This document shows positions 16,033-42,484 of a stretch of 45,436 bases of DNA, one piece after another (within the stretch, counting starts at the first letter, position 1; each line of letters begins with the position of its first letter). Under the pieces are notes generated by a model, which ran no database searches, had not been told where the DNA came from, and was given only the letters and a program-made list of their open reading frames with translations. Source of the stretch: a virus (lineage: Duplodnaviria; Caudoviricetes); IMG/VR virus record IMGVR_UViG_3300005805_006996, positions 1 through 45,436 of that record; one strand, 5' to 3'. The position numbers and the translations under genes were made by a program.

Positions 16033-16107
16033 GCGTTAGTAGCTAAGTGGCATAGCAGGAGCCTCTAAAACTCTATATCGCGGGTTCGATTCCCGCCTAA
16101 CGCACCA
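16033..16107 (+). tRNA. Amber suppressor tRNA (anticodon CUA)
   Basis: GCGTTAG/CTAACGC acceptor, D-arm GCTA/TAGC, loop CT-CTA-AA (16065-16067), T-arm GCGGG TTCGATT CCCGC, A73, encoded CCA; C31-A39 mismatch. Confidence 0.88.
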
Positions 16108-34712: not shown

Positions 34713-34928
34713 AAGTGTGTAGGCAACGCGGGCCAAGCGGCGCACTTAAAACATGTCGTGAAAGGGCGGACTGTAGGATGAAGCCTCTCTTGTGAGGTGA
34801 AAAATTACAGGCTAGGGTACAACCCTAGCATAGCGTAGAAATACGCTATTCTATAGTATACTGATGAAAATACGCCCATGGCTTTTGGCGCCATGACTAG
34901 CCCTCTAGTGTACTATAGAATAGTGTAT
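34713..34928 (+). ncRNA. Structured leader RNA of tRNA array (unassigned)
   Basis: Several hairpins (GCTAGGGT/ACCCTAGC; ATAGCGTA/TACGCTAT) and a 22-bp stem 34841-62/34907-28 ending at the tRNA-Gln 5' end. Confidence 0.5.
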
Positions 34929-35946: not shown

Positions 35947-36006
35947 AGGATGCTAACAGCAAATTTTAACATCAAACTGCTAATTTGAAACGTTAAAATG
36001 CATCCT
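35947..36006 (+). ncRNA. Scaffolded anticodon-arm RNA 1 (Ser GCU)
   Basis: AGGATGC/GCATCCT stem, TAACAGCAA, inner stem, TCAAA CT-GCT-AA TTTGA. Confidence 0.7.
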
Positions 36007-36017
36007 GTTATATCTGT

Positions 36018-36094
36018 TGGGGTGAGATGCGATAGGAAGCATACTGTCCTTTGAAGTCAGGTCTTAAGGGGTTCGAATCCCCTCACCCTTGCCA
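36018..36094 (+). tRNA. tRNA-Gln(TTG), divergent second copy
   Basis: Loop CT-TTG-AA, T-T mismatch in anticodon stem, G73, CCA. Confidence 0.78.
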
Positions 36095-36104
36095 AAATTT
36101 AAAT

Positions 36105-36180
36105 GCCGCTTTAGCTGATGTGGTCATAGCAACGGTTTGAAGCATCGTGGAAGTAGGTTCGATCCCTACAGGCGGCACCA
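36105..36180 (+). tRNA. tRNA-Phe(GAA), atypical loop
   Basis: Loop TT-GAA-GC, CCA. Confidence 0.85.
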
Positions 36181-36185
36181 ATCAT

Positions 36186-36261
36186 GCCCGCGAAGTATTA
36201 GCTGGTGGTATGCTGCCTTCGTAACGCAGAGGATTCAGTTCGAGGCTGAACGTGGGCACCA
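36186..36261 (+). tRNA. tRNA-Thr(CGT)
   Basis: Loop TT-CGT-AA, C-C mismatch at 31-39, T-loop TTCGAGG, CCA. Confidence 0.75.
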
Positions 36262-36264
36262 AAG

Positions 36265-36293
36265 TTGACAATAAATCCATTGTCATGTACAAT
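36265..36293 (+). promoter_or_regulatory. sigma70 promoter
   Basis: TTGACA-ATAAATCCATTGTCATG-TACAAT. Confidence 0.8.
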
Positions 36294-36324
36294 GCTTGCA
36301 TACGCTGAGAAATCAGCAATGCTC

Positions 36325-36520
36325 TTTAAAAGTTAATAGTAGGTTCTGTCTCTTGAAAAAGAGAACGGTAACGAAACGACAGCCAGCAGTTCTTAGTAAG
36401 TCAATGCGACTGAAAAGAGGGTGTCTTAGTAGAGAGGTGAATCCCCGTAGGGGATTTGTGATAAAGCCCTGGAGGCCTAAGCATGTAATGTGAGAAATCA
36501 TCCTACTGTCAATTTTTAAA
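36325..36520 (+). ncRNA. Unassigned ~195-nt structured RNA
   Basis: 19-bp closing stem 36325-43/36502-20; internal hairpins TCTCTT/AAGAGA, AGTC/GACT, AATCCCC/GGGGATT. Confidence 0.55.
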
Positions 36521-36589
36521 AGTTTGTTCTTTAATAAAGTGTGTATAAAGCGTGGGTTCTCAAAGAACCTCTGTGCAGAGAACATCTGT

Positions 36590-36663
36590 CCCGACACTAA
36601 TAGCGCCTGATGAGAGAGTAACGCCTCGAAACCATTTGGTAGCGCGGAGTGGCAACAGTCGGG
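36590..36663 (+). ncRNA. Type I hammerhead ribozyme within a 17-bp-stem-closed RNA (36540-36702)
   Basis: Stem I GCGC/GCGC, core CTGATGA (36607-13), stem II GAG/CTC, GAAA (36628-31), stem III ACC/GGT, GUA cleavage triplet ending 36641. Confidence 0.8.
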
Positions 36664-36706
36664 GAATAACGGTGCCACCAGGAGGTTCACGCTTTATGCA
36701 CATTTT

Positions 36707-36781
36707 ACACCGTGAGGCAGCTGGTGTGGCCGCTAGTCCTTCAAACTAGTGAGATGGGATCAAAACCCATACGGTGTACCA
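36707..36781 (+). tRNA. tRNA-Glu(TTC)-like, atypical (C33, A73)
   Basis: CTAGT CC-TTC-AA ACTAG, T-loop ATCAAAA, CCA. Confidence 0.65.
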
Positions 36782-36790
36782 AGAATCTAT

Positions 36791-36869
36791 TCCGCAGAAT
36801 CCGAGCATGGTGCACGGACTTGACTGTTAATCAATGACTAGCTGGGATCGTTACCCAGATGCGGAGCCA
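36791..36869 (+). tRNA. tRNA-Asn(GTT)
   Basis: Loop CT-GTT-AA, G73, atypical T-loop ATCGTTA, CCA. Confidence 0.8.
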
Positions 36870-36874
36870 AACAT

Positions 36875-36949
36875 GCCGTAGTGGTAGACTGGTAATACAC
36901 CGGATTGTCTATCCGTTCTATGAGGGTTCGATTCCCTTCTACGGCGCCA
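36875..36949 (+). tRNA. tRNA-Asp(GTC)
   Basis: Loop TT-GTC-TA, G73, CCA. Confidence 0.85.
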
Positions 36950-36951
36950 AT

Positions 36952-37101
36952 TATGGGATAGACGGTATGCTTGAGTCCCGAGCAGTCTAACATATCATGG
37001 GATATGTGACGAGCAAAGTGACTGTAAGGTAGATAAACTCGCATATACGAGACAATCCAACGAGGTCAGGTAACGCTGAATAGTTGGGCACCCGGCTCAT
37101 A
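36952..37101 (+). ncRNA. Unassigned ~150-nt structured RNA
   Basis: TATGGG/CTCATA ends; hairpins ACATATC/GATATGT, CTCG/CGAG, CCAAC..TCAG/CTGA..GTTGG. Confidence 0.45.
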
Positions 37102-37111
37102 TAAATATGAT

Positions 37112-37774
37112 ATGCTAAATCCAGTACATATAATTAACAATACTGATTCAGCCTCTATTCGAATTGGGCTTAAATTGTTACCTGCACAGCATAAGTATGC
37201 TATGCTCACCGATAAAGAAAAACTATTACTACTAACATTAGCTAAAACTATACCTAATAAGTCGGCTATAGTAGAAATAGGAACATATTTAGGAGGCAGT
37301 GCTAGTATACTTGCTCATGCAAATCCTAACAATAAAATTTTTTGTTTTGATACTTTCGATAAACAATTAGAAAATCGCATTTTAGATCCAGTATGGATTT
37401 CAGAAACTATCGGGCTTGGATCTATTCGTACTCTTGACAGTGTACAAGAAATTTTAAAAGAGTTTAAAAATATTAGACTAACAAAAGTTCCAACAAAACA
37501 TACTGTTATGGTTAATTGGCGAGCTCCAATTGATTTATATTTTGAGGATGGGAACCATACTGATCCGGTTCTTACTAAAAATATAATACATTGGTCATCC
37601 AATTTAAAGATAGGTGGCTTCATGGTATTACATGACTTTAGGCCGTATTTAGAAGTAGGATTTGGTAAACACCCAGATGTAGACCGAGCAGTAAATACGC
37701 TCATTAGGAATGATAAATGGAAATTCTGTGGTGTTGTTGATAGCACGGCAGTGTTTCAAAAATTAGAAATATAA
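37112..37774 (+). CDS. Class I SAM-dependent methyltransferase (Methyltransf_24-like)
   Basis: VEIGTYLGGSA, FDTF, DLYFEDGNH, GGFMVLHDF; TATAAATA upstream. Confidence 0.85.
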   Translation: MLNPVHIINNTDSASIRIGLKLLPAQHKYAMLTDKEKLLLLTLAKTIPNKSAIVEIGTYLGGSASILAHANPNNKIFCFDTFDKQLENRILDPVWISETIGLGSIRTLDSVQEILKEFKNIRLTKVPTKHTVMVNWRAPIDLYFEDGNHTDPVLTKNIIHWSSNLKIGGFMVLHDFRPYLEVGFGKHPDVDRAVNTLIRNDKWKFCGVVDSTAVFQKLEI

Positions 37775-37777
37775 ATT

Positions 37778-37852
37778 GGGGGCAGCAGTGGGCTGCGGCT
37801 GGGGCTTGCAACCTTAGTGTCTAGATGAGTTCGATTCTCACGGTCTCCACCA
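37778..37852 (+). tRNA. tRNA-Ala(TGC) with short D-arm
   Basis: G3-U70, A73, loop CT-TGC-AA, CCA. Confidence 0.75.
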
Positions 37853-37858
37853 ATCAAT

Positions 37859-37934
37859 GGGCCTTCGGCAGCTACAAGAGCGACCGGCGGAAACGCTTGC
37901 GGGCATTGACCGTAGCTGGTCATTGGGTCCACCA
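37859..37934 (+). ncRNA. 76-nt CCA-ending RNA with Ala-type acceptor stem but no D/T arms
   Basis: GGGCCT/GGGTCC-A-CCA (G1-C, G2-C, G3-U, A73); internal CAGCTAC/GTAGCTG stem. Confidence 0.55.
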
Positions 37935-37941
37935 AATATAT

Positions 37942-38036
37942 AGTGAGTTGACAGAGCCTGGCTTAATGTGCCTTCCTGCTAAGAAGTGCGCCGGCTAATA
38001 CCCGGCACGAGGGTTCGAATCCCTCACTCACTGCCA
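37942..38036 (+). tRNA. tRNA-Ser(GCT)
   Basis: Loop CT-GCT-AA, long variable arm, G73, CCA. Confidence 0.9.
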
Positions 38037-38041
38037 ATTTT

Positions 38042-38101
38042 AGGATGCTAACTGCAAATACAAGCATTTCACTGATAATGAAACCAAGCTCAATGCATCC
38101 T
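38042..38101 (+). ncRNA. Scaffolded anticodon-arm RNA 2 (Ile GAU)
   Basis: AGGATGC/GCATCCT, TAACTGCAA, TTTCA CT-GAT-AA TGAAA. Confidence 0.7.
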
Positions 38102-38112
38102 GTTATTTCAAT

Positions 38113-38186
38113 GGTGTCTTTAGTGTAGTGGTAGCAAACTTGACTGTGAATCAAGAGGCGAGGGTTCGATTCCCCAAGGCACCCCA
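38113..38186 (+). tRNA. tRNA-His(GTG)
   Basis: G-1:C73, loop CT-GTG-AA, CCA. Confidence 0.88.
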
Positions 38187-38196
38187 AACAATTTAT

Positions 38197-38273
38197 GCCC
38201 CAGTAACTCAGTGGACTAGAGTACTGTGCTACGAACGCAGGAGTCGGAGGTTCGAATCCTTCCTGGGGTGCCA
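38197..38273 (+). tRNA. tRNA-Arg(ACG)
   Basis: Canonical cloverleaf, loop CT-ACG-AA, CCA. Confidence 0.93.
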
Positions 38274-38280
38274 AACATAT

Positions 38281-38358
38281 GCGGGTAGATTGCGGCAAGG
38301 GGCGCCCAGCAGTCTTCCAAACTGATAATGCGGAGTTCGACTCTCCCTACCCGCTCCA
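38281..38358 (+). tRNA. tRNA-Gly(TCC), irregular D-arm
   Basis: GCGGGTA acceptor, U73, loop CT-TCC-AA, CCA. Confidence 0.8.
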
Positions 38359-38363
38359 CTTTT

Positions 38364-38423
38364 AGGATGCTAACTGCAAAATTATTTTTTTACTTTTATT
38401 GGAAAAAGCAAAAAATGCATCCT
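38364..38423 (+). ncRNA. Scaffolded anticodon-arm RNA 3 (Lys UUU)
   Basis: AGGATGC/GCATCCT, TAACTGCAA, TTTTA CT-TTT-AT TGGAA (two G-U pairs). Confidence 0.6.
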
Positions 38424-38433
38424 GTTATATATC

Positions 38434-38509
38434 GCTGATGTGGCACAGTCGGTAGCGCATTTCCTTGGTAAGGAAAAGGTCGCCGGTTCGATCCCGGCCA
38501 TCAGCACCA
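38434..38509 (+). tRNA. tRNA-Thr(GGT)
   Basis: Canonical cloverleaf, loop TT-GGT-AA, CCA. Confidence 0.93.
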
Positions 38510-38515
38510 ATTTAT

Positions 38516-38591
38516 GCCTAGTTGGAGTGAGAGGTTAACCGGCATCCTTACAAGATGTCTTATGCTGGTTCGAGTCCAGCACTAGGTACCA
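38516..38591 (+). tRNA. tRNA-Val(TAC)
   Basis: Loop CT-TAC-AA, weak D-arm, CCA. Confidence 0.8.
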
Positions 38592-38596
38592 GTTAG

Positions 38597-38705
38597 GGGA
38601 TACTCACAGCAAAACTATCCAAACGATAGGTTACTGGTTCGATTCCAGTATTACGCACATGCGTGATTAGCTCATAGGTAGAGCATTCGTCAAGAATAGT
38701 ATCCC
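38597..38705 (+). ncRNA. Circularly permuted tRNA (Gly-like) in CAGCAA scaffold
   Basis: Order is TCC-AA, anticodon 3' strand ACGAT, AGGTT, T-arm, acceptor 3' ATTACGC, ACAT linker, acceptor 5' GCGTGAT, TA, D-arm, A, TTCGT; closed by GGGATACT/AGTATCCC. Confidence 0.75.
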
Positions 38706-38714
38706 GTTTTATTT

Positions 38715-38842
38715 GGAGATGTGATGTAATGGTAGCATAGCACAGCAAAAACCGTATTCTGTTTTAGCATACGTGCAGCAACTCTATAGCTATCCCTCTG
38801 TAAAAGGGCTTGTCCGTGGTTCGAATCCCGGCGTCTCCACCA
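38715..38842 (+). tRNA. tRNA-Tyr(GTA)-like gene with ~53-nt insertion in the anticodon stem
   Basis: GGAGATG/CGTCTCC, D-arm, GC|insert with CAGCAA twice|CCT CT-GTA-AA AGGGC, T-arm, CCA. Confidence 0.6.
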
Positions 38843-38850
38843 AACACATT

Positions 38851-38926
38851 GTCCGGTTAGTTCAGCGGTATGAACGCTACCCTGACACGGTAGAGGTCAC
38901 TGGTTCGATCCCAGTACTGGACACCA
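38851..38926 (+). tRNA. tRNA-Val(GAC)
   Basis: Canonical cloverleaf, loop CT-GAC-AC, CCA. Confidence 0.93.
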
Positions 38927-38930
38927 AGGC

Positions 38931-38959
38931 TTGACAAATATTAGCAAGTCATATAGAAT
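38931..38959 (+). promoter_or_regulatory. sigma70 promoter
   Basis: TTGACA-17 nt-TAGAAT. Confidence 0.8.
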
Positions 38960-38986
38960 GAGTATATTCGATTAAAGGAGATTGAC

Positions 38987-39007
38987 ATGAAACGAGGTAA
39001 ACTCTAG
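38987..39007 (+). other. Minigene MKRGKL-UAG with strong RBS, followed by hairpin 39007-39043
   Basis: AAGGAG at 38975-80, ATG 38987, TAG 39005-07; GTGTCATCTTG/CAGGATGGCAC stem. Confidence 0.5.
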
Positions 39008-39070
39008 TGTCATCTTGAGACTCCGTATGGTCCAGGATGGCACGTTAAAGAAAACAAATAGTACGACCAT

Positions 39071-39145
39071 CCCAGAGAAACTTTGACGGTGAAGTCCTGC
39101 CTCTTAAGCAGAGAGAACTGAGTTCGAATCTCAGCACTGGGACCA
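39071..39145 (+). tRNA. tRNA-Lys(CTT)
   Basis: Loop CT-CTT-AA, one acceptor mismatch, CCA. Confidence 0.78.
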
Positions 39146-39148
39146 ATA

Positions 39149-39223
39149 CGGAGTATGGTGAAATGGTATCACAGCGGACTTTTAATCCGCCAATTCAGGG
39201 TTCGAATCCCTGTGCTCCGACCA
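39149..39223 (+). tRNA. tRNA-Lys(TTT)
   Basis: GCGGA CT-TTT-AA TCCGC, CCA. Confidence 0.92.
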
Positions 39224-39229
39224 AACTAT

Positions 39230-39305
39230 GCGGGTATAGCTCAGTTGGTAGAGCAGTAGACTTTTAATCTATTGGTCGTGGGTTCGAATCCCCCTGCCCG
39301 TACCA
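39230..39305 (+). tRNA. tRNA-Lys(TTT), second copy
   Basis: GTAGA CT-TTT-AA TCTAT, CCA. Confidence 0.92.
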
Positions 39306-39385
39306 TATAAAAACACATTCTAAAACATAACGATTTAGGATCATCAACGGATACTTTCAGCACATCCGCGAGTGTGTTTCTATAT

Positions 39386-39460
39386 GGTGATGTAGCATTA
39401 AGGTAATGTACCACCCTCATAAGGTGTCCTAAGGCGGTTCGATTCCGCCCATCACTACCA
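39386..39460 (+). tRNA. tRNA-Met/Ile2(CAT)
   Basis: Loop CT-CAT-AA, elongator-type acceptor, CCA; Met vs Ile2 not resolvable by eye. Confidence 0.85.
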
Positions 39461-39476
39461 AATTAAAGGAGATGAC

Positions 39477-39659
39477 ATGAAAACTGTATACTTTGAAAAT
39501 CCTAGAAACCACGAGAAATTTGAATGTCATGATTTAAAAGATGTACGAGTAATTGATGGCATCGAATATCTCAGAGTGTTTAAATTCGGAACGCAACGTG
39601 ATTGTCTTGTGCGTAAGGACCAATTGCGTAAGCTTAGTAAGAATGAAAAGCCGATGTAG
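39477..39659 (+). CDS. Small hypothetical protein overlapping tRNA-Phe 5' end
   Basis: AAGGAG RBS; TAG stop lies within the tRNA (GCCGATG-TAG). Confidence 0.7.
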   Translation: MKTVYFENPRNHEKFECHDLKDVRVIDGIEYLRVFKFGTQRDCLVRKDQLRKLSKNEKPM

Positions 39660-39725
39660 CTCAGTTGGTAGAGCAGCGGACTGAAAATCCGTGTGTCACT
39701 GGTTCGAACCCGGTCTTCGGCACCA
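39650..39725 (+). tRNA. tRNA-Phe(GAA)
   Basis: Canonical cloverleaf, loop CT-GAA-AA, CCA. Confidence 0.93.
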
Positions 39726-39826
39726 TGTGTCCAATTCTCTAGACTTTTACAGAAAAATTTTGTATAGTAACGTTATGCATACATGTTCTTGTGTGCTAAA
39801 CATTAACAGAGATTAGGACTTATTCA

Positions 39827-40663
39827 ATGAAAAAACACGTAAAAAACATTTTGGCTGCTACTATTATCGGTATGGCAAGTGCAGGCGCAATGGCTGACAC
39901 TAAACAGTGTAAGGTCGTTACACAGGGCCCCGGCGGTCTTACTGACCAGCTTTTTAGGATTATGGAAAAATATAATCCTGACTTTCAGGTTCAGTATAGG
40001 ATTTCTGGGTTTAACGTAACTCAAATTGATTTGCTAGAACAAGACAAGTCGTGGATGATGTTGTCCCCGCCTATTTTCTTTAGCAAACAAAATCCTCGCC
40101 CCAATCCTCCGATTGAGCAATTGAGGGTAGTTAGTTCTAGTAACGCTGCTATTGTTACAAACAAAGACTTGACTATCAAAGACTTTGCTGATAAGAAATT
40201 GAATGTAGGTATTCCGGCATTTGCTCAATACTCACACATTCTAGCACTCACGTTACAACAAAAGAATCCTGGTATCAACATTGTTCCGGTACCTGCTAAG
40301 GATGCTCCTGTTATATTGAAGAACGGTGATTTGGACGTATACATTCACACAGAACCAACAATTGACGTTATGGTAACTAATTTTGGTTTCAAGAAAATGG
40401 TTGTTGTTGCACCCGATGTACCAACAGATTTTAACGGAATCAAAACCCGTAGCTTGCATTTTAGTTCTATTTGGGTGCATAAAGATGCAACACCCGCACA
40501 AAAGCAAAATGCTATTAATTGTTTAGATAAACTTGCAACCAATCCTGCTTTCATCGAGGAGATTGCAAAAACAGGATCTACATCTAGGTTGACTATTTCA
40601 TCCGAAGAGCGTGATCGTTATCTAAATGATTTCAAAAATATGCTAAGGCAATGGGGTCATTAA
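39827..40663 (+). CDS. TctC/Bug-like periplasmic solute-binding protein (paralog of 32239-33057)
   Basis: Signal peptide ending AMA, GPGGLTD, NPPIE, KLNVGIP, DLDVY, VHKDAT..QK shared with the other copy. Confidence 0.72.
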   Translation: MKKHVKNILAATIIGMASAGAMADTKQCKVVTQGPGGLTDQLFRIMEKYNPDFQVQYRISGFNVTQIDLLEQDKSWMMLSPPIFFSKQNPRPNPPIEQLRVVSSSNAAIVTNKDLTIKDFADKKLNVGIPAFAQYSHILALTLQQKNPGINIVPVPAKDAPVILKNGDLDVYIHTEPTIDVMVTNFGFKKMVVVAPDVPTDFNGIKTRSLHFSSIWVHKDATPAQKQNAINCLDKLATNPAFIEEIAKTGSTSRLTISSEERDRYLNDFKNMLRQWGH

Positions 40664-40672
40664 AATAAAAAT

Positions 40673-40696
40673 AAACCGCTGATATCAGCGGTTTTT
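40673..40696 (+). terminator. Intrinsic terminator
   Basis: AAACCGCTG-ATAT-CAGCGGTTT-TT. Confidence 0.75.
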
Positions 40697-40700
40697 ACAT

Positions 40701-40790
40701 AGAGAGTTGCCTGAGAGGCTTAAGGGCGCACACTGGAAATGTGATGGTCGTGAAAGCGGCACGAGGGTTCGAATCCCTCACTCTCTGCCA
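40701..40790 (+). tRNA. tRNA-Ser(GGA)
   Basis: Loop CT-GGA-AA, long variable arm, G73, CCA. Confidence 0.9.
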
Positions 40791-40795
40791 ATTAT

Positions 40796-40903
40796 AGGAT
40801 GCACACAGCAAAACTTTAATGCCACCAACAATTTCGGCATGCCGTGCAAGTGGGCACCGTGGTTGAAATAGGGGTTCGATTCCCGGCTATACCACAGCAT
40901 CCT
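40796..40903 (+). ncRNA. Scaffold RNA 5 carrying T-arm/D-loop-like modules
   Basis: AGGATGC/GCATCCT, ACACAGCAA, hairpins TGCC/GGCA (x2, one with a GCAAGTG loop) and GGG TTCGATT CCC. Confidence 0.6.
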
Positions 40904-42286: not shown

Positions 42287-42484
42287 ATTCAACATCCGAC
42301 CTAACGCAGGAAACTGAGGAAGTTCGGGACTTGTGGCAAGTGCGAGTAGGAGCGAAAGCGTTAATACTACCTTGATATAACAAGCAACACAAACAGAACT
42401 AGGCAACACTTGCGCTATTAGTTCGGGTTGTGGCAAAGACGAATGTTAGGATTGAAACAGAATCCCGGCTATGAGATGTTGAAT
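42287..42484 (+). ncRNA. rnpB: Minimal RNase P RNA
   Basis: P1 ATTCAACATC/GATGTTGAAT; P2 CCTAACG/TGTTAGG; P3 CAG-GAAA-CTG; CR-I GAGGAAGTTCGGG pairing with CR-V ACAGAATCCCGGCTA (P4 with bulged U); CR-IV AGACGAATG. Confidence 0.85.

Follow-up and report, generated by a model that had tools for sequence, protein, structure and literature searches.

The window (the whole stretch of DNA analysed, 45,436 nucleotides) carries a jumbo-phage tRNA cluster with six small RNA genes, which share a common handle and display isolated pieces of tRNA, anticodon loops included. With a probability of roughly one half, these RNAs, made of a common stem, an ACAGCAA handle and tRNA parts, would be bound by a DUF2828/DUF7788 protein and act as baits for host defence enzymes that attack tRNAs. 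As a whole, the observation of an earlier sequence-only reading of this DNA is confirmed with corrections, and its interpretation, that of decoys or inhibitors of anticodon nucleases, is partly supported. The features are the following:

35947..36006, plus strand: short Y-like RNA with a 7-bp terminal stem and the handle ACAGCAA at 35956-35962
35977-35983, plus strand: anticodon loop CU-GCU-AA (Ser GCU) of the 35947 element on a 5-bp stem; the minimum free energy fold forms this arm
38042..38101, plus strand: short Y-like RNA with the handle ACTGCAA and a CU-GAU-AA loop at 38072-38078 (Ile GAU)
38364..38423, plus strand: short Y-like RNA of a U-rich, UGG-loop subtype (50.5 bits, outside the training set)
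38597..38705, plus strand: RNA of YrlA architecture, with handle, V hairpin, T arm, sealed acceptor hairpin and D arm
38715..38842, plus strand: sixth member, with an unpermuted tRNA body comprising acceptor stem, encoded CCA, and D, V-like and T arms
40796..40903, plus strand: long Y-like RNA with handle, a hairpin whose loop starts ACCA, a second hairpin and a T-loop stem

The motif AGGATGC occurs at 35947, 38042, 38364 and 40796, and GCATCCT at 36000, 38095, 38417 and 40897, so that the identical stem and the exact length of 60 nt claimed for the first three elements are borne out, the fourth measuring 108 nt. Taken as a family constant, on the other hand, 60 nt does not stand: pooled lengths run from 46 to 78, mostly 51-60, within the limits of the search. 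The handle reads ACAGCAA or ACTGCAA, and the scaffold reported at 38597 does contain a copy of it, but on a stem (GGGATAC/GTATCCC) that is similar rather than identical to the others. The terminal stem has 7-8 bp in five elements and is supported by covariation. As had been noticed, five elements start shortly after a tRNA CCA (5-8 nt downstream in all of them), and full genes for tRNA-Ser(GCU), tRNA-Ile(GAU) and tRNA-Lys(UUU) are present in the window. ARAGORN does not call the tRNA preceding 38364 (38281-38358), for which Rfam gives a weak match; a gene for an RNase P RNA seems to be present in the phage as well. Contigs assembled from RNA libraries cover the 38042 element, where one metatranscriptome contig (X1 record 2) spans it without differences, and parts of 38597 and 40796, together with neighbouring coding DNA.

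The interiors of the short elements are not unrelated, as first thought, because those at 35947 (76.5 bits, a member of the training alignment) and 38042 belong to one anticodon-arm class. Each of the three 60-mers allows a 7-nt loop on a 5-bp stem (5/5 pairs), but RNAfold does not predict it consistently: the arm is predicted for 35947 (z -3.65), appears at low ensemble frequency in 38364 (z -1.98) and gives way to a different 4-bp hairpin in 38042 (z -1.61). The Lys(UUU) assignment of 38364 finds no support: what its nearest homologues retain is a CUUUU...UGG...AAAAAG hairpin, while the 5′ side of the presumed anticodon stem is not conserved, and a 1-nt deletion at 38399 in a variant contig shifts the register of that stem. 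This element is therefore probably not a Lys anticodon arm, and its UGG loop may be D-loop-like or complementary to CCA. As candidates for functional tRNAs the 60-mers were rejected, since they have no acceptor, D or T arms.

Among the longer elements, the 38597 copy (fold z -4.68; acceptor hairpin changed in homologues) matches the whole Rfam model RF02553 with 31.1 bits (E 0.0016 and 4.2e-5), short of the gathering score of 69. The YrlAs published for CcrColossus themselves reach no more than 29.9-42.3 bits, which makes that threshold a weak test. The permuted order of T arm, acceptor hairpin and D arm is found in the window at 38597-38705 only, the 60-mers having none, and recurs in 15 of 94 long handle elements under a strict regular expression. 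The member at 38715-38842, overlooked by the sequence-only reading, matches the Rfam tRNA model at 33.9 bits with a 66-nt insert, its anticodon arm being swapped for one that carries a pair of handles (ACAGCAA at 38742 and GCAGCAA). In the alignment of five distinct sequences all 7/7 acceptor pairs are kept, five of them with changes on both sides. It was discarded as a functional tRNA on account of this handle arm and of the next hairpin, whose loop varies among homologues. In the 40796 element (fold z -2.15; homologues 87-88% identical in the contigs L604, L610 and L687), the proposed T arm is indeed a stem carrying the T-loop TTCGATT.

A modular family of RNAs mimicking tRNA parts is supported by the homologous interiors, in which anticodon-form loops are strongly enriched, as had been predicted. 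"Nearly always" was too strong: a canonical loop occurs in 69 of 226 unbiased short elements (about 30%). Nor do all anticodons end in U36, as was seen in the window; 62 of 94 in the canonical class do, but 28 end in A. Anticodon switching recurs on one scaffold, and Lys-UUU is in strong excess among the displayed anticodons. Debris of tRNAs without function, processing spacers or repeated DNA elements could be suspected from the location among tRNA genes, the AT-richness and the weak folding of single sequences. Such an origin seems highly improbable in view of the compensatory changes in both stems, the strand specificity of the anticodon loops, the avoidance of A34, anticodon stems unlike those of cognate tRNAs, and the tight linkage with one protein family. 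It is improbable, too, that the ribonucleoproteins would bind synthetases, EF-Tu or the ribosome and bias translation towards the phage. The set does span mimics of the anticodon, the elbow and the CCA-bearing body, yet Ser anticodons are common (15/94) although SerRS does not read the anticodon, and CAU, the commonest phage tRNA anticodon (108/1499), is absent from the canonical class.

For the protein that CAGCAA had been proposed to recruit, a strong candidate emerged in the DUF2828 protein, with a predicted Ro60 fold. Fold predictions and genome comparison indicate that, across many phages, handle RNAs travel with a protein of this ring fold: among the relatives, 35 of 50 element-bearing contigs have a DUF2828/DUF7788 gene nearby on the same strand, at a distance of up to 5 kb in 15 of the 35. 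In our 13%-complete fragment the partner gene was not found; its predicted place is 2-17 kb downstream of the point where the HNH gene starts. The partner modelled from one relative (L193) is predicted to form a ring of helical repeats, which a vWA domain containing a DxSxS motif closes. By sequence, a TROVE (PF05731) gene was found in none of the 50 element-bearing contigs, none of the 8 near-complete ones and not in our own fragment; the partner itself has no PF05731 match, PF25045 matches a single one of 24 members (E 0.004), and the best Ro60 in a PDB sequence search has an E of 0.52. Alignment with single TROVE proteins by hhalign gave 50-65%, over the vWA part only. Protein and RNA are both absent from one near-complete relative (G109, 95%), and the system is therefore dispensable.

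The idea that no similar family had been described is not supported, since the 38597 copy has the architecture of YrlA (Chen et al. 2014, PMC4201824). As reported there, YrlA and YrlB (RF02553) likewise have a terminal stem whose 5′ strand bears a conserved single-stranded motif, occur as several RNAs at loci close to a Ro60-fold gene, are accompanied by short hairpin RNAs and show, as in the 38597 copy, the order T arm, sealed acceptor, D arm; bacterial Y RNAs are bound by a Ro60 protein and carry pseudouridine-55 and dihydrouridine. Their motif near the 5′ end is GNCGAAN0-1G, whereas handle RNAs have AC(A/U)GCAA at that position. They further differ in a partner that scores nothing with PF05731, in a two-handle form with a tRNA body, and in the canonical 7-nt anticodon loops of the short RNAs, which the available text on YrlA/YrlB does not describe. 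The Ro60 of Thermus phage phiLo with Yrl1/Yrl2 (PMC12135203; PDB 9KOP, 9L5Y) is a TROVE-type protein with CGAA-motif RNAs, shares about 17% identity with the DUF2828/DUF7788 partner in structural alignment and acts, as described, through PNPase; the word 'anticodon' is absent from the main text on these RNAs. For Bas63 gp130 (Felixounavirus), it was guessed that the Y RNAs are some of the annotated tRNAs (bioRxiv 2024.10.10.617714). Instead, handle RNAs, which the available text of that preprint does not describe, sit between the tRNA genes of Bas63.

In the favoured pathway, the RNAs would be co-transcribed within the tRNA cluster and, given their position, released by tRNA 5′ and 3′ processing. 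Stem and handle would then bind the Ro60-like ring in the way that known Y RNAs do through GNCGAA, a step suggested by co-occurrence, gene order and fold. The distal module presents, as sequence and covariation show, an anticodon arm, D-like loop, T/D elbow or acceptor/CCA body. Finally, anticodon arms that have been adjusted through point changes, on common AU-rich stems, would engage anticodon nucleases, either competing with real tRNAs or tethering the nuclease to the ring. Such a decoy role is plausible and agrees with the anticodon spectrum, which is shared, as is the tRNA-cluster location, with the phage tRNAs known to escape these nucleases (T5 tRNA-Lys/Thr/Asn against PARIS, tRNA-Tyr against retron-Eco7). 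The latter are complete and functional and take the place of the cut host tRNAs, often without the cleavage motif, whereas handle RNAs cannot decode and retain the cleavage-sensitive U36AAU39. Several observations speak against baits. The U36AAU39 contrast could go back to a single ancestral A31-U39 stem rich in AU (stem GC 0.24 versus 0.60), and UAAUC, the complete AriB site, occurs in mimics (11/29) no more often than in full tRNAs (82/187). None of the three Bas63 copies found has a canonical Lys, Thr or Tyr loop, and Ser GCU and Ile GAU, displayed in this window, are not among the nuclease targets in the available descriptions. The low share of canonical loops, the partner gene missing from this fragment, the relative that lacks the system and the activity of gp130 by itself point the same way.

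The same Ro60-like ring could also serve a classical Y-RNA tether rather than nuclease baits: enzymes that handle tRNA (RNA ligases, CCA-adding or modifying enzymes, PNPase) would be brought in by the tRNA parts, for repair or for decay, unless these parts do no more than stabilise the RNA. tRNAs with anticodons ending in U or A have a hypermodified A37, and 90 of the 94 canonical-class anticodons are of this kind; close to the homologue, phages CBB and LP-066 have a gene for an RNA ligase, and CBB and S13 one for a tRNA nucleotidyltransferase. Known Y RNAs link Rsr to PNPase (PMC4201824; PMC12135203). A general tether has, however, no need of repeated anticodon switching or of the Lys-UUU excess, and we consider it rather unlikely. 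Alternatively, the RNA might gate the protein: once an activated host nuclease cuts the displayed anticodon arm, the protein would be free to work in anti-defence or RNA repair. In rRNA maturation, Rsr is active when free of RNA and is inhibited by Y RNA (PMC4201824). The retained U36AAU39 would suit such gating, as would the restoration of T7 plaquing on Ppl by gp130 alone, without handle RNAs (bioRxiv 2024.10.10.617714), which makes at least that activity independent of them. The handle is nevertheless distant from the loop, so a cut there need not release the protein, and gating seems quite unlikely.

A broader form of the bait reading, tentative and possible rather than probable, would make DUF2828/DUF7788 a second, phage-centred Ro60 branch and its RNAs a programmable display library for counter-defence against tRNA-destroying immunity. 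One handle would carry swappable modules (nuclease-matched anticodon arms, elbows and CCA-bearing bodies), comparable to RNA anti-CRISPRs. If the bait role holds, phages would counter tRNA-cutting immunity by resistant tRNAs plus non-decoding RNA mimics, whose anticodons would track the nucleases encountered and point to undiscovered ones (Ser GCU, Arg UCU, Cys GCA, Ser UGA). For a domain of unknown function that 711 cultured phage records contain, a fold and an RNA partner can now be named as likely; a reading becomes available for spacers left unannotated in the tRNA clusters of phages, and the role of the tRNA-like module of Y RNAs becomes a testable question. Handle RNAs lie beside the partner protein in Bas63, FelixO1, KVP40, S13, BUCT-ZZ01, LP-066 and Lumos, and Bas63 (E. 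coli K-12) and Lumos (M. smegmatis) are model phages for direct tests.

The window is an entire virus record (45,436 bases, linear, with an estimated completeness of 13%) and is therefore probably a fragment of a jumbo-phage genome. Its + strand carries a tRNA cluster from ~34.9 kb, interrupted by a few ORFs, and 23 tRNA genes were detected by ARAGORN across the window. The five element positions proposed in the sequence-only reading were confirmed, the three short ones being 60 nt long, and all five begin, as had been claimed, soon after a tRNA CCA (5-8 nt downstream). With a sixth member, the small Y-like RNA genes are:

35947-36006, +: anticodon-class element, Ser GCU
38042-38101, +: anticodon-class element, Ile GAU
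38364-38423, +: UGG-loop class, not anticodon-class, from its grouping with UGG-loop elements
38597-38705, +: RNA with the architecture of YrlA (bacterial Y RNA, Rfam RF02553), from a sub-threshold whole-model match
38715-38842, +: sixth member, a tRNA body in unpermuted order that encodes its CCA and has a two-handle arm in place of the anticodon arm
40796-40903, +: T-loop plus a hairpin loop beginning ACCA; three homologues, 87-88% identical

A covariance model trained on 74 anticodon-class elements, two of them window copies, scored 76.5 bits at 35947, 61.0 at 38042 and 50.5 at 38364, with E 0.065 at 40795 and no further window match below E 0.28. Single-sequence folding gave a clear anticodon arm at 35947 only. 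In Rfam, tRNAs alone reached gathering scores in the window; the whole YrlA model matched 38596-38709 below threshold (31.1 bits). Metatranscriptome contigs (riverine, freshwater, aquaculture) contain near-identical pieces of the window; these RNA-library contigs cover 38042 exactly and 38597 and 40796 in part, adjacent coding DNA being covered too. The Lys(UUU) arm once read at 38364 is not supported, as one homologue, read whole (L002), has an A-run in place of the 5′ arm of the stem, and one U of the loop is missing in other homologues and in a variant contig. The last 32 nt of this element are common to five homologues at 94% identity, and the UGG loop of its class could be a D-loop mimic or a pairing partner of CCA ends. 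Homologues of the sixth member were sought by two pattern scans, whose 10 and 120 loci were chance matches for the most part; five other copies were recovered, two of them almost identical. In five aligned sequences all pairs of its acceptor stem are formed and 5/7 change on both sides; pairing in the T stem is incomplete, at 76%.

The exact pattern of terminal stem and handle, the AC(A/T)GCAA motif beside that stem, occurs at no fewer than 127 loci in viral contigs, with 91 distinct elements among the matches listed. The predicted enrichment of anticodon loops was borne out: CU-NNN-A(A/C) on a stem of 5/5 pairs is present in 32/91 elements, against 0.37 in 300 dinucleotide shuffles (maximum 2) and none on the reverse strand of the 91; with the stem relaxed to 4 of 5 pairs, the loop is found in 43/91, against 2.0. 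Only the strict loop is informative, since the looser YU-NNN-RN form scores 58/91 (12.7 in shuffles) yet 57 on the reverse strand. The pool of all viral loci holds 252 short elements, 94 of them with a canonical anticodon loop, although one contributing search demanded the loop context, leaving the anticodon itself free. When that search is left out, anticodon loops are found in 69/226 short elements (2.2 in shuffles) and UGG loops in 27/226 (5.5 in shuffles), so that most of this unbiased set displays loops other than the anticodon form once expected nearly always. All five pairs of the aligned anticodon arm show changes on both sides, and 94.6% of cells are paired, a figure that leans towards the arm because the alignment was selected for it.

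The displayed triplets behave as anticodons, since A34 is avoided (1/94, against 43% A in element interiors) and 91/94 are anticodons of at least five among 1,499 phage tRNAs at the same loci; two of the 94 are UUA. Lys-UUU accounts for 28/94 where 5.4 would be expected, and this excess holds after clustering at 80% identity (12/54, p 4e-5). Next in frequency are Tyr-GUA (9), Ser-GCU, Thr-UGU and Arg-UCU (8 each), Cys-GCA (7) and Ser-UGA (6). More than one anticodon occurs within 6/44 clusters, and the AU-rich mimic stems resemble the cognate tRNA stem no more than others (p 0.65). From these sequences we infer that anticodons would have been retuned on common scaffolds, not captured from tRNA genes.

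The 80 stem-and-handle loci among the matches listed fall on 51 distinct contigs of at least 20 kb, and 50 of these were searched for a protein partner. In that set the TROVE profile (PF05731) matched 0/50 element-bearing contigs, and DUF2828 (PF11443) was present in 35/50, including 8/8 near-complete records. As a control, 47 of 50 contigs >21 kb from 80 listed matches to a generic tRNA pattern were searched, omitting smaller ones and one shared with the test set; PF11443 occurred in 3/47, and in 1/11 near-complete records, among the matches listed (35/50 versus 3/47, p 5e-11; median lengths 47.4 and 45.9 kb). Conversely, among the 47 control contigs and 32 contigs with the HNH gene of the window, the RNA model matched 10/10 PF11443-positive contigs and 6/69 negative ones, all six incomplete. 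Gene and RNA share the strand in 34/35 cases among the matches listed, at distances of ≤1 kb in 8 and ≤15 kb in 27 of the 35, RNA arrays often lying just upstream. The window itself has no PF11443 match; in the seven HNH relatives that carry this gene, it is found downstream of HNH, 2.4-17 kb from the start of the latter, and because the window ends 2.7 kb past that start, its PF11443 gene is probably just beyond the fragment end.

Among relatives collected by database searches (L-numbers), a GAATG-stem subclass of handle RNAs (L186-L194, L587-L706) has degenerate (C/U)AUA loops and, in L186-L194, lies ~65 nt ahead of the DUF2828 start codon, possibly as an autoregulatory site. Handle RNAs of 100-180 nt with conserved non-tRNA interiors also precede DUF2828 genes (L186-L194, L196-L197). 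Lachnospiraceae/Ruminococcus MAG contigs (L361:4001-4250, L412, L385, L423), which may be phage-derived, carry handle-RNA arrays immediately ahead of DUF2828 genes, including two RNAs with a tandem pair of anticodon-like arms.

These RNAs are structured and modular, their anticodons are selected, and they are linked to a single protein family, DUF2828, for which a Ro60 fold is predicted. Such a Ro60-like protein would very probably bind the RNA through the handle. That the RNAs would in turn serve as baits for tRNA-cutting nucleases has, overall, a probability of about 0.5. The commonest displayed anticodons overlap the targets of known nucleases, as far as the specificities available from PMC12409363, PMC13056530, PMC12445682 and PMC11555353 go, and U36AAU39 is present in 44/44 unbiased U36 mimics versus 137/379 full phage tRNAs, a contrast that may however reflect descent. 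Against baiting, the complete AriB site is not enriched and most short elements carry other kinds of loop. Moreover, in the accessible text of the PhageMaP preprint (bioRxiv 2024.10.10.617714), Felixounavirus Bas63 gp130, a Ro60-like protein that counters Ppl, rescues T7 when expressed alone, and was thus active without its RNAs in the sole published test; its sequence identity with the DUF2828 protein is 35%.

The family is real and widespread and is predicted to work like Y RNAs, from which it differs in matching neither the YrlA motif nor the TROVE profile. According to the portions available of Chen et al. 2014 (PMC4201824), YrlA is defined by GNCGAAN0-1G, T/D arms and an adjoining TROVE gene. 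The 22 phages of that study are TROVE-annotated, and ACAGCA is absent from six supplement files. Likewise in partial text, Hu et al. 2025 describe the phiLo Ro60 with CGAA RNAs (PMC12135203), and Iyer et al. 2021 note that certain jumbo phages encode a ROT/TROVE protein (PMC7824862). A literature search spanning few subscription journals, with some queries swamped, returned nothing on ACAGCAA RNAs, anticodon-displaying Y RNAs or phage DUF2828, and the family is best placed as a DUF2828-linked branch with anticodon display, of which we found no description. Canonical Y RNAs may display anticodons as well. In Caulobacter phage CcrColossus (L737:2837-2946, −), a published TROVE-type YrlA bears a CU-GUU-AA loop, its stem directly ahead of the T arm at the position named V by Chen et al. 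(PMC4201824). Mycobacteriophage Lumos (L345:4484-4741) has three handle RNAs directly after a Ro-like gene, one of YrlA architecture (39.3 bits) and another with a CU-GCU-AA loop identical to that of window 35947.

Other features accompany the elements in the window. The tRNA cluster includes a compact RNase P RNA-like gene (42288-42483, +) of ~196 nt, its specificity domain being reduced; it matches the whole Rfam RNaseP_arch model at 32.4 bits (GA 84), with E 5e-8 when 221 bases were searched. At ~36590-36680 (+), CTGATGA, a short stem, GAAAC and a GTA triplet within an outer helix form what we take to be a hammerhead-like core, with no Rfam ribozyme match. By eye, 36266-36330 and ~36525 (+) hold first a sigma70-like promoter, then a hairpin resembling that of an rRNA leader and two motifs similar to boxA, possibly for antitermination of the tRNA cluster. 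Non-coding stretches at ~34780-34925 and 36955-37095 (+) look structured, without Rfam match. Rfam alone, ARAGORN being negative, reports tRNA-like genes, some weak, at 36018, 36707, 39071, 40917, 38281, 35661 and 37777. A tRNA with a CUA anticodon (16033-16107, +; 'Pyl' in ARAGORN, 65.8 bits in Rfam) is a possible amber suppressor.
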